A stretch of DNA of 64,000 nt from NCBI RefSeq assembly GCF_056712565.1, contig NZ_CM160072.1; one strand, written 5' to 3'. The notes beneath the pieces were generated by a model. That model did no database searches, was not told the origin of the DNA, and worked only from the letters and a program-made list of their open reading frames with translations. Shown here in pieces: positions 5,659-7,660 of the stretch; the first letter of the stretch is position 1, and every line of letters begins with the position of its first letter. The translations under genes were made by a program, and so were the position numbers.

Positions 5659-5878
5659 TTAGCCACCAGCACAATAATCTTACAAAAGGTCATATAAGAA
5701 TAAATAGATGTTAATAATACAATGGGGTTGTAACGCGAGTATTTAAATATAATATTGCGAGCTAAGTGAAAACGTTAAGTAATTGAAATAATTTTTCATT
5801 AAAAGCGTTTCTTATTGATCGAGAAATAAGTTTTCTATTTAATGCAAAAAAGTTAAGGATAAACGGGAATGAAATAAA

Positions 5879-7660
5879 GTGGGCGATATTGTTTACCTGA
5901 GAATAATCGGTGAGAAGCAGGGCGATATTTCTTCAGGCTGTGGGACGTATGCGTCGGTTGGTAATCGCTGGCAGGTTGGCCATGAAGATGAAATTTTTGC
6001 CTTTGCACTCACCAACGCCATTACCAGTACTGGTAAAGGCGTTAATCTACAGGGGCTACAATTTTGCAAACTCATTGATAAAAGCTCACCGCTACTGTCT
6101 AATGCCATCAATCAGAATGAGCGGTTATTTATTGAAATCGATTTGTATCGTATAAATAAAAGCGGGCGCTGGGAACGGTATTATTATATTCAGCTAAGAA
6201 ATGCTTCATTAACTGCTATTCATGTAAACATTTCTGACAATAATCTTCCTACCGAATGTGTAAATGTTAATTATGACTACATATTATGCAAACATCTAAT
6301 AGCCAATACGGAATTTGACTGGTTGGCCTTTCCTGCTGGCTATAATAGCTTATTTATTCCACCTAAAAACCCACCTGCCAGTAATCTTAACCCTGAGCCA
6401 CTACCAGTTGTTAACCTTCCACTCTCTCCACCAGCGGTTAAACCGGTCTATGCCAAATCCTGTCTGAAGGAGAAGGGATGTACAGATGCCGGAACGGCAG
6501 AAGAACCCGCTGAAAACTTCGGGCAAGTAGCGATTTTTGCTCTGCCAGTGGTTGATGACTGCTGTGGATACCACCATCCGGAGGCTAACGATGTTGGGCA
6601 ACCCGCAGAAGCTCAAACCATGCTACTGTTTCCGGGTAGTGTGTTGGCGGCTCAAATATGGGGAAAATGGTCGCTCAGTGGCATACTCAGTGCAACCTGC
6701 GGCTCTTACATCGGTGCGTTGGCATCTGCTTTGTATATTCCCTCTGCGGGCGAGGGCAGTGCTCGCGTGCCCGGACGTGATGAGTTCTGGTATGAGGAAG
6801 AACTGCGGCAGAAAGCACTAGCAGGCAGTACCGCCACCACCCGGGTACGTTTTTTCTGGGGAACTGACATTCACGGCAAGCCTCAGGTGTATGGTGTTCA
6901 TACGGGTGAAGGTACGCCGTATGAAAACGTCCGCGTGGCGAACATGCAGTGGAACGAGCAGACGCAGCGTTATGAATTTACCCCCGCTCACGATGTCGAT
7001 GGCCCCCTGATTACCTGGACGCCGGAAAATCCGGAACATGGGTATGTTCCGGGCCATACCGGTAACGACAGGCCGCCGCTGGAGCAGCCCACCATTCTGG
7101 TGACGCCGATTCCGGACGGCACCGATACCTATACCACGCCGCCATTCCCGGTTCCTGATCCGAAAGAATTCAACGATTATATTCTGGTTTTTCCGGCGGG
7201 ATCCGGTATTAAGCCCATCTATGTTTACCTGAAGGAGGATCCGCGAAAGCTGCCTGGTGTTGTAACAGGGCGCGGCGTCCCGCTTTCACCAGGAACTCGC
7301 TGGCTGGATATGTCGGTATCCAATAACGGCAACGGCGCACCAATCCCGGCGCATATTGCTGATAAATTGCGCGGACGGGAGTTTAAAACCTTTGATGAGT
7401 TTCGCGAGGCGCTGTGGCTGGAGGTGAGTCAGGATCCGGAGTTGATAGCGCAGTTTTCAAGTGGTAACCAAACACGTATAAAACAAGGATTAACCGCAAA
7501 AGCACCTATTGACGGTTGGTATTATGGCCCTAAAGAAATAGTTAAAAAATTCCAGATACATCATCGTGTTGCAGTTGAATATGGCGGCAGCGTATACGAT
7601 ATTGATAATTTACGAATTGTTACCCCCAGACTACACGATGAGATTCACTACAGGAGATAA
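5879..7660 (+). CDS. Hcp-fused T6SS effector: N-terminal Hcp tube-protein domain, central pyocin-S/colicin-like region, C-terminal colicin E9-type HNH DNase
   Basis: The N-terminal ~160 aa carry an Hcp signature (..KLIDKSSPLLSNAINQNERLFIEIDLYRINKSGRWERYYYIQLRNASLTAI..). The C-terminal ~130 aa align closely to the colicin E9 DNase (GAPIPAHIADKLRGREFKTFDEFREALWLEVSQDPEL ... FQIHHRVAVEYGGSVYDIDNLRIVTPRLHDEIHYRR, with the HH..N..H motif). The track start is GTG; the exact start is uncertain. Confidence 0.8.
   Translation: MGDIVYLRIIGEKQGDISSGCGTYASVGNRWQVGHEDEIFAFALTNAITSTGKGVNLQGLQFCKLIDKSSPLLSNAINQNERLFIEIDLYRINKSGRWERYYYIQLRNASLTAIHVNISDNNLPTECVNVNYDYILCKHLIANTEFDWLAFPAGYNSLFIPPKNPPASNLNPEPLPVVNLPLSPPAVKPVYAKSCLKEKGCTDAGTAEEPAENFGQVAIFALPVVDDCCGYHHPEANDVGQPAEAQTMLLFPGSVLAAQIWGKWSLSGILSATCGSYIGALASALYIPSAGEGSARVPGRDEFWYEEELRQKALAGSTATTRVRFFWGTDIHGKPQVYGVHTGEGTPYENVRVANMQWNEQTQRYEFTPAHDVDGPLITWTPENPEHGYVPGHTGNDRPPLEQPTILVTPIPDGTDTYTTPPFPVPDPKEFNDYILVFPAGSGIKPIYVYLKEDPRKLPGVVTGRGVPLSPGTRWLDMSVSNNGNGAPIPAHIADKLRGREFKTFDEFREALWLEVSQDPELIAQFSSGNQTRIKQGLTAKAPIDGWYYGPKEIVKKFQIHHRVAVEYGGSVYDIDNLRIVTPRLHDEIHYRR

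Follow-up and report, generated by a model that had tools for sequence, protein, structure and literature searches.

Identity of the gene and anatomy of its leader

We examined the translation start of hcp-ET3-4, a type VI secretion system (T6SS) effector gene, in contig NZ_CM160072.1 of RefSeq assembly GCF_056712565.1. The window is the whole stretch of DNA that was analysed, 64,000 nucleotides (nt) in length, and all coordinates below count from its first letter. According to the listing of open reading frames (ORFs), the GTG at 5879-5881 opens the longest in-frame ORF, which covers 593 codons from 5879 to 7660, just as the first-pass annotation of this DNA had claimed. The product matches three Pfam families in succession, namely T6SS_HCP (residues 28-139, E 5.7e-13), Pyocin_S (residues 309-450, E 1.4e-39) and Col-Pyo_DNase (residues 460-591, E 1.5e-41). 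The name Hcp-ET denotes an Hcp whose C terminus is extended by a toxin. We identify the gene as Hcp-ET3-4, an orphan T6SS effector already known from Escherichia coli, and every feature of that effector that can be checked in a sequence was found: the Hcp domain, the C terminus of pyocin-S and deoxyribonuclease (DNase) type, and the triplicated immunity genes downstream. The Hcp-ET3-4 of uropathogenic E. coli (UPEC; UTI89_C0121) has been described as Hcp fused to pyocin S3 and a colicin DNase and followed by three immunity copies (PMC6730261; also PMC12466380), and its T6SS-dependent delivery and antibacterial activity are credited to Ma et al. 2017 in the summary given by the review PMC6730261. 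The domain order T6SS_HCP, Pyocin_S, Col-Pyo_DNase is identical in the published effector and in the window gene, and both are followed by three colicin-type immunity genes. The chromosomal site is also the same as in the B2 strains CFT073, NU14 and IHE3034, with 100% identity over 5790-5930. The gene itself is no different from the published one; the window adds an insertion sequence, IS5, 217 nt upstream. Neither the start codon nor the leader of Hcp-ET3-4 is discussed in the published descriptions that we found, PMC6730261 and PMC12466380 among them.

The gene and the elements of its leader are as follows.

5879-7660, plus strand: hcp-ET3-4, 593 codons with a GTG start, encoding the Hcp tube, pyocin-S and colicin/pyocin DNase domains
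5855-5859, plus strand: distal strong Shine-Dalgarno (SD) sequence AAGGA, the core of UAAGGAU (5854-5860), from the sequence and its duplex with the anti-SD
5865-5868, plus strand: proximal weak SD-like GGGA, 10 nt before GTG 5879
5869-5877, plus strand: mini-ORF ATG-AAA-TAA (Met-Lys-stop), read from the sequence, out of frame with the gene
5870-5872, plus strand: TGA stop in the gene frame, three codons upstream of the GTG, the upstream bound for any start
5872-5881, plus strand: putative insertion of about 10 nt, AAATAAAGTG, relative to the family start region ATG/AGY-GAY, bearing the present start codon

The window reads ...GTTAAGGATAAACGGGAATGAAATAAAGTGGGCGATATT... between 5840 and 5900. 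The AAGGA that had been noticed about 20 nt before the GTG is real; direct reading puts it 19 nt from the GTG and 9 nt from the ATG at 5869. The two-codon mini-ORF ATG-AAA-TAA is also present. It had been placed at 5867-5875, which is 2 nt too far to the left. Its TAA (5875-5877) is followed by A5878 alone and then by the GTG, which corrects the spacing from 3 nt to 1 nt. The frame of the mini-ORF is -1 relative to the gene; seen from the mini-ORF, the gene is in the +1 frame.

The two candidate initiation sites differ in strength. When the leader was scanned with the 16S rRNA 3' end, the duplex of the distal UAAGGAU with the anti-SD was calculated at -5.7 to -5.9 kcal/mol. The proximal site CGGGAA, which had been overlooked in the earlier annotation, gave -4.3 kcal/mol, and -3.3 kcal/mol in the allele with T: position 5865 is polymorphic (g/t), and some E. 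coli alleles carry TGGA instead of GGGA. This proximal GGGA or TGGA corresponds to the conserved TGGA that lies directly 5' of the start in the Hcp-ET family. The predicted probability of being unpaired is 0.26 for the GTG region, 0.55 for the ATG of the mini-ORF and 0.81 for AAATAA. A strong SD 9 nt from an ATG followed by AAA is a competent start site in E. coli. With its better SD, 9-nt gap, ATG and AAA second codon, the upstream site is stronger than the GTG site. As the two starts are only 10 nt apart, simultaneous occupancy of both is excluded.

GTG 5879 is the translation start

On comparative evidence, GTG 5879 is the translation start of hcp-ET3-4, because the in-frame stop, homology and the canonical Hcp N terminus all agree. 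The TGA at 5870-5872 closes the gene frame; hence no in-frame start is available upstream (nothing before 5873). The annotation pipeline PGAP places the start at GTG 5879 in all seven E. coli records inspected. Among the 71 predicted proteins retrieved, the N terminus M-[SG]-[DNEH]-[ILV]-[IV]-Y-L was found in each of the 61 homologues that contain their N terminus. The Hcp chains 6a2v, 3he1 and 5mxn of the PDB align from query residues 3-6, with query residue 3 matching residue 3 of 6a2v and query residue 6 matching residue 5 of 5mxn, which leaves the canonical length before strand 1. An earlier suggestion that the true start might lie elsewhere is refuted by the TGA, by the starts of the homologues and by the alignment with Hcp structures.

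The aligned first codon is ATG in 82/82 usable homologous loci from other species. For 30 of the 33 enterobacterial loci the position of the start is forced, with no other in-frame start after the upstream stop. It had been held against the GTG that homologues might consistently begin at a different ATG; by alignment they begin at the same position, with ATG as the codon. A GTG start was seen only in the Escherichia gene among the homologues compared. Since the homologues all have ATG at the aligned codon, the GTG is a derived A-to-G change in Escherichia.

Homologous leaders point to a displaced ancestral start

The leader of the E. coli gene and those of four homologues align base for base, with 19 (18) nt between the SD and the start.

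E. coli: gttAAGGATaaacgGGAATGAaataaaGTGGGC
Divergent Escherichia metagenome contig (L095): ...AAGGATaaacgGGAATAAaataaaGTGAGC
Superficieibacter (L003): ggtAAGGATaaccaGAAATAAaattaaATGAGC
Enterobacterial metagenome-assembled genome, MAG (L084): ...GAAATAAaatgaaATGAGC
Same enterobacterial MAG (L083): atcAAGGAGcaacaGAAATGAcaGGGAATGAGC

Both L083 and L084 belong to MAG GCA_032485755.1. They are paralogous Hcp-ET genes with Hcp domains that are 87% identical, both have the leader with the stranded SD, and their neighbours differ (a proP-like major facilitator superfamily gene versus an aroP-like permease gene).

A strong SD 17-18 nt from the start occurs only in the subclade of these five genes; in most homologues the distance is 4-10 nt, where both ranges are measured from 7-mers in the table of best anti-SD sites. 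In a sister group of ten loci (L004, L005, L011-L016, L018 and L021) the start region has the form [SD]-N-AATGGA/ATGAGY, the slash marking the beginning of the gene, as exemplified by L012 and L014: ggTAAGGATAgtaATGGAATGAGT. In L012, L014 and L021 the true ATG follows TAAGGAT at a distance of 9-10 nt. The E. coli string AAGGATAAAC[G/T]GGAATGA is the same as the start region of the sister group, at the same distance from SD to ATG. Thus AAGGAT and GGAATGA of E. coli (5855-5872; GGAATGA 5866-5872) match the SD-plus-start motif of the family, AAGGAT-N-GGA/ATGA.

We then searched 1.01 Mb of fetched DNA for AAGGAT-N4-8-GGAATGA with at most one substitution. The search returned the true start regions of L012-L014, L016, L018 and L021 as well as the E. 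coli site, next to about seven unrelated chance matches, i.e. roughly 3e-4 per 40-nt leader. Because the motif is specific to Hcp-ET start regions beyond chance, the E. coli element is best taken as a homologous relic rather than a random string. AAGGAT at 5855-5860 and GGA-ATG-A at 5866-5872 are therefore most likely the ancestral SD and start codon of the Hcp-ET family. Such a displaced SD and start is a historical explanation that was absent from the options of the first-pass annotation.

Most probably, the old ATG was displaced when 10 nt were inserted in the ancestor shared by the Escherichia, Superficieibacter and related-MAG genes. The 10 nt of extra spacing are common to L003, L084, L083 and L095, and the insertion is deduced from the motif-based alignment, the motif search with its empirical false-hit rate and the table of SD gaps; its boundaries are approximate and were placed by a position-by-position comparison of the leaders. 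An insertion just after the ancestral ATG would have put this ATG out of frame, moved the real start 10 nt downstream and left the strong SD stranded 19 nt from it. The new start would have been ATG at first, as in L003, L084 and L083, and GTG later in Escherichia. At the position of the mini-ORF ATG, L003, L084 and L095 have ATA and L083 has ATG. In E. coli the old ATG would survive, capped by TAA after a single sense codon. L083 carries copies of GRAATGA (GAAATGA and GGAATGA) 10 nt apart, and the insertion may conceivably have arisen when the start region was duplicated in tandem.

The mini-ORF appears inessential to the GTG start

A dedicated coupling device would have its own competent SD and start, a stop that overlaps the downstream start or lies a few nt from it, and conservation among orthologues. 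As far as the sequence goes, the mini-ORF has the first (-5.9 kcal/mol, 9-nt gap), and its stop is 1 nt from the GTG. The arrangement is not conserved among orthologues. A metagenome scan for relatives within the subclade returned seven contigs; six of them match the window exactly, and the informative one is L095 (OQWI01005052.1, 3938-4865). This contig represents a divergent Escherichia-like lineage whose aroP is about 95.5% identical to that of E. coli. Its hcp-ET3-4 starts with GTG-AGC, has ATA in place of the mini-ORF ATG, and shows no interruption in the 286 codons that the contig covers. It differs from E. coli at 21 sites, and 13 of these are third positions of codons, a pattern of purifying selection. 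As L095 is intact without the upstream ATG, the GTG start would work without the mini-ORF, which appears inessential. Coupling or reinitiation at the GTG cannot be obligatory, nor can it be a conserved device at this position, because the nearest orthologues, L003 and L084, and also L095 have ATA for the mini-ORF ATG and the ORF of L095 is intact under apparent purifying selection.

By chance, about 1.3-2% of starts should have a two-codon ATG mini-ORF that ends within -6 to +4 of them. With this base rate and about 60 genes scanned, the bare mini-ORF pattern is not beyond chance.

Possible present role of the putative relic

The explanation that we favour, with moderate confidence, is that the gene starts at GTG 5879 downstream of a displaced ancestral ribosome-binding site (RBS) and start, and that the mini-ORF is a relic which passes part of its ribosomes on by reinitiation. 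The strong SD would recruit most 30S subunits to ATG 5869, with its 9-nt gap, its AAA second codon and its A-rich, mostly unpaired surroundings. These ribosomes would make fMet-Lys and terminate at the TAA, 1 nt before the GTG. A fraction of them would reinitiate at the GTG, aided by the weak GGGA 10 nt upstream, and a ribosome on the mini-ORF would meanwhile bar direct initiation there. The TAA cap would keep the relic from being translated across the real start, as it still is in L083, where the ATG opens a 14-codon upstream ORF (uORF) overlapping the real start. As a net outcome, the self-toxic DNase effector would be translated at a low, buffered level. We hold the steps of present function (loading, termination and reinitiation) less firmly than the origin of the relic, and likewise the view that the mini-ORF is a tolerated relic, made harmless, that hands on ribosomes rather than an indispensable control device.

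Two of the options offered by the first-pass annotation fit into this picture. A weakly translated gene is plausible, given the derived GTG, the weak proximal SD and the strong SD stranded 19 nt off. Coupling or reinitiation from a leader peptide is possible: the strong SD is at an ideal distance from the mini-ORF ATG, and only 1 nt parts the stop from the GTG. In E. coli, efficient reinitiation is confined to stops and starts that overlap or lie very close together (PMC10666635), short uORFs are able to bring ribosomes to a coupled downstream gene (PMC12548453), and closely spaced upstream RBSs either couple to the main RBS or occlude it (PMC13285730). Meydan et al. 2019 proposed that an immediate stop lessens the harm of a stray out-of-frame start; when the stop of the start-stop in yecJ was removed, giving a 14-codon ORF, expression of the main frame was strongly reduced (bioRxiv 10.1101/520783).

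Several observations weigh against the favoured explanation. Regarding the origin of the relic, the MAFFT alignment of the leaders placed all gaps at the 5' end and no 10-nt gap internally; the copies of the postulated duplication unit are only 6-7/10 identical, which speaks against the duplication version; and parsimony leaves retention of the ATG and its regain from ATA in E. coli unordered. Regarding present function, a scan of the plus strand of 5400-6000 found no convincing sigma-70 promoter (a perfect TATAAT at 5748-5753 lacks a usable -35), so that the location of AAGGA on the mRNA is assumed. AAGGA, the mini-ORF and the GTG are invariant in nine sampled E. coli alleles (96.5-100% identity) and in six metagenome contigs. 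The most extreme E. coli haplotypes differ at 7 of 100 leader positions, and about 1.3 changes are expected in the 18 relevant bases; this diversity is too low for the invariance to be a sign of selection. Our literature search, UPEC included, found no expression, ribosome-profiling or N-terminal data for the gene, and the sign of the net effect, delivery or occlusion, is a guess.

The leading alternative, which we consider somewhat unlikely, is that the relic is neutral. The mini-ORF and the distal SD would then have no measurable effect, and the GTG would be used directly via GGGA at its 10-nt gap in an A-rich, unstructured leader. Such neutrality agrees with L095, where the GTG is kept and the ORF, intact and under purifying selection, has no mini-ORF ATG before it, and with the intact genes of L003 and L084, which have neither a near SD nor an ATG at the mini-ORF position. 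The base rate of about 1-2% per start and the lack of statistical power in the E. coli invariance point the same way. However, an SD of -5.9 kcal/mol that lies 9 nt from ATG-AAA overlaps the footprint of a ribosome initiating at the GTG, which makes interference or hand-over hard to avoid.

It is also unlikely that the upstream site is purely an attenuator or decoy, capturing ribosomes and sterically blocking the GTG so as to keep the DNase effector low, with negligible reinitiation. The mutually exclusive occupancy of two starts 10 nt apart and the greater strength of the upstream one would suit this role; cases in which an upstream RBS close to the main one occludes it are on record (PMC13285730), and the start-stop in yecJ cuts expression of its host gene by about 16% (bioRxiv 10.1101/520783). 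A stop 1 nt before the start is nevertheless the geometry of efficient reinitiation in E. coli (PMC10666635). Moreover, the immunity gene directly after the toxin (7663) already covers self-toxicity, and the feature is not conserved in orthologues.

A conserved motif at the starts of related Hcp-ET genes

The start regions of the sister group show a further regularity. Positions -6 to -1 (AATGGA) are 96% pairwise identical among the ten loci, compared with 42% at third positions within the first 50 codons of the same loci. At positions -12 to -6 the mean majority-base frequency in loci with AATGGA/ATG is about 60%. The context AATGGA/ATGA creates an ATG-GAA-TGA that overlaps the start (L004, L011-L016, L018 and L021). 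Other two-codon ORFs at the start are ATG-AAA-TGA in L084, those of L007 and L010, and ATG-GAA-TAA in L028, which ends 4 nt before the ATG. AATGGA as the C terminus of an upstream protein was rejected, since the open stretch of that frame is a mere 2-38 codons long and the peptides show no relationship to one another.

Two loci of the sister group should be mentioned separately. L011 carries AATGGAAT twice, about 20 nt apart. L018 (Citrobacter sp. FP75, 2501-2530) is an Hcp-ET-like copy with TAA at codon 6 (MSDIV-stop-LKLI), which probably makes it a pseudogene; even so, no SD in the family is stronger than its CGGAGGA at -9.5 kcal/mol.

We regard it as rather improbable that the Hcp-ET family as a whole carries a selected two-codon mini-ORF or GGA element abutting the start and governing toxin translation. 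Such a family element could act by obligatory hand-over of ribosomes or by binding of a regulator such as CsrA. If the device reading were true, the E. coli arrangement would be the family device rebuilt after the 10-nt insertion.

We give still less credence to a selected coupling device in which the two-codon ORF is required to load a defective GTG, in the manner of phage f1 gene VII or bicistronic designs; this would hold for Hcp-ET genes generally. The SD has the ideal distance from the mini-ORF but not from the gene, whose start follows the stop after 1 nt. Of 32 enterobacterial family loci, 14 have a two-codon mini-ORF that abuts or overlaps the start; these represent about five independent leader lineages (that of the window, L084, the ATG-GAA-TGA loci, L007 with L010, and L028), where 1-2% would be expected, and AATGGA at -6 to -1 is far more conserved (96%) than synonymous sites (42%). 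However, L095 has the GTG with no upstream ATG, and L003 is without any mini-ORF. The enrichment in the family is inflated by shared ancestry, by the TGA that the ATGA(G) context provides for free and by the post hoc definition. The conserved AATGGA is also equally explicable as a GGA-type protein-binding motif (e.g. for CsrA) or as another determinant of initiation.

Attenuation through a leader peptide and a known cis-regulatory leader RNA were both rejected. No terminator was found on the plus strand within 5400-6000, the leader gave no Rfam match at E<=1 except a spurious microRNA match on the other strand, and the leader near the starts is mostly unpaired.

A programmed +1 frameshift, starting at ATG 5869 and slipping at AAA-TAA-A into the gene frame to give MKKVGD..., is barely credible and was rejected on the N termini of the homologues, none of which has such an extension: the gene does lie in the +1 frame and the stop does follow a Lys AAA codon in an A-rich run, but tRNA-Lys would face AAU after the slip, L095, L003 and L084 lack the ATG, and the SD lies 12 nt before AAA-TAA, with none of the internal SD that stands 3 nt before the shift site in prfB.

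Comparison with known short-ORF systems

In short-uORF coupling, as in phage f1 gene VII, the uORF-coupled genes of S. meliloti and engineered bicistronic designs, the short ORF has a good SD and ATG of its own, as the mini-ORF does, and its stop adjoins a downstream start which by itself is weak. At 1 nt, the distance found here falls inside the reinitiation range of E. coli. Unlike those systems, the mini-ORF has only two codons, so that the downstream SD cannot lie inside it. An absolute dependence of the main ORF is contradicted here by L095, and the arrangement is not conserved in orthologues.

The start-stops of Meydan et al. 2019 share with the mini-ORF a functional-looking SD and start, a near-immediate stop and the lack of a useful peptide; they were proposed either to adjust the output of the gene that hosts them or to make a stray out-of-frame start harmless. 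However, the mini-ORF has a sense codon, AAA, between its start and stop, and is thus not a start-stop proper, and it lies in the 5' leader abutting the start, whereas start-stops lie inside a gene.

In RBS occlusion (Dietz et al. 2026, PMC13285730) an upstream site could damp the main one in the same way, and the two sites here are about 10 nt apart. The reported cases have a suboptimal SD-start spacing (<4 nt) and long overlapping uORFs, whereas the spacing here is optimal and the ORF has two codons.

The mini-ORF also resembles a known class of minigenes. The "bar" minigenes of phage lambda (AUG-AUA-UAA) consist of an SD, an AUG, one sense codon and a stop, and their effect is toxicity via drop-off of peptidyl-tRNA in pth-defective hosts. 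The mini-ORF has the same anatomy with another sense codon; nothing suggests a toxicity of the bar type here. Taken on its sequence, the leader arrangement may plausibly be regarded as a further case of the known short-uORF coupling or occlusion type, with a putative function that is plausible and inessential.

Distribution and neighbourhood of the locus

The locus is flanked by aroP and pdhR-aceE in E. coli genomes, and PGAP labels its genes tssD followed by bacteriocin immunity proteins. The 141 nt spanning the start were found in 1057 of 5426 complete E. coli genomes, CFT073, NU14 and IHE3034 included, and the start region is at least 96.5% identical across all 1057. The flanking features of the window are listed below.

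7663-7947, plus strand: first colicin-type immunity gene (Pfam Colicin_Pyocin)
8355-8645, plus strand: second colicin-type immunity gene (Pfam Colicin_Pyocin)
9048-9344, plus strand: third colicin-type immunity gene (Pfam Colicin_Pyocin)
8115-8354, plus strand: orphan DNase 3' fragment between immunity genes, similar to toxin residues 516-579
8812-9000, plus strand: orphan DNase 3' fragment between immunity genes, similar to toxin residues 516-579
4463-5658, plus strand: IS5 copy with transposase at 4531-5511 and a TTAG duplication at 4459-4462 and 5659-5662

The small ORFs at 8115-8354 and 8812-9000 are 78% and 74% identical, respectively, to residues 516-579 at the DNase end of the toxin. 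As these orphan 3' fragments stand beside the immunity genes, each "immunity duplication" is a repeat unit of about 693 bp, made up of a toxin 3' fragment and an immunity gene.

The IS5 copy sits between aroP and hcp-ET3-4, with its end 217 nt 5' of the GTG, and other strains, e.g. ATCC 11775, have no IS5 at the same site. In strain Z247 (L089), an IS1A ends 46 nt upstream of the same GTG. The AT-rich leader of hcp-ET3-4 is thus a repeated target of insertions, and insertions in it might affect expression of the toxin.

Implications

The annotation of GTG 5879 is settled for an antibacterial effector that is widespread in extraintestinal pathogenic E. coli (ExPEC) and present in about one fifth of complete E. 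coli genomes. When Hcp-ET3-4 is cloned or quantified, the native leader is worth keeping in mind. The case illustrates that a small insertion can strand an RBS and leave a live decoy start that is later capped by a stop. It also provides a natural series of alleles for the effect of the relic on toxin dosage: E. coli has the ATG mini-ORF and a GTG start, L095 has ATA and a GTG start, L003 has ATA and an ATG start, and L083 has ATG with a 14-codon uORF. If the AATGGA/ATGA element proved to be functional, Hcp-fused toxins would share a post-transcriptional control.

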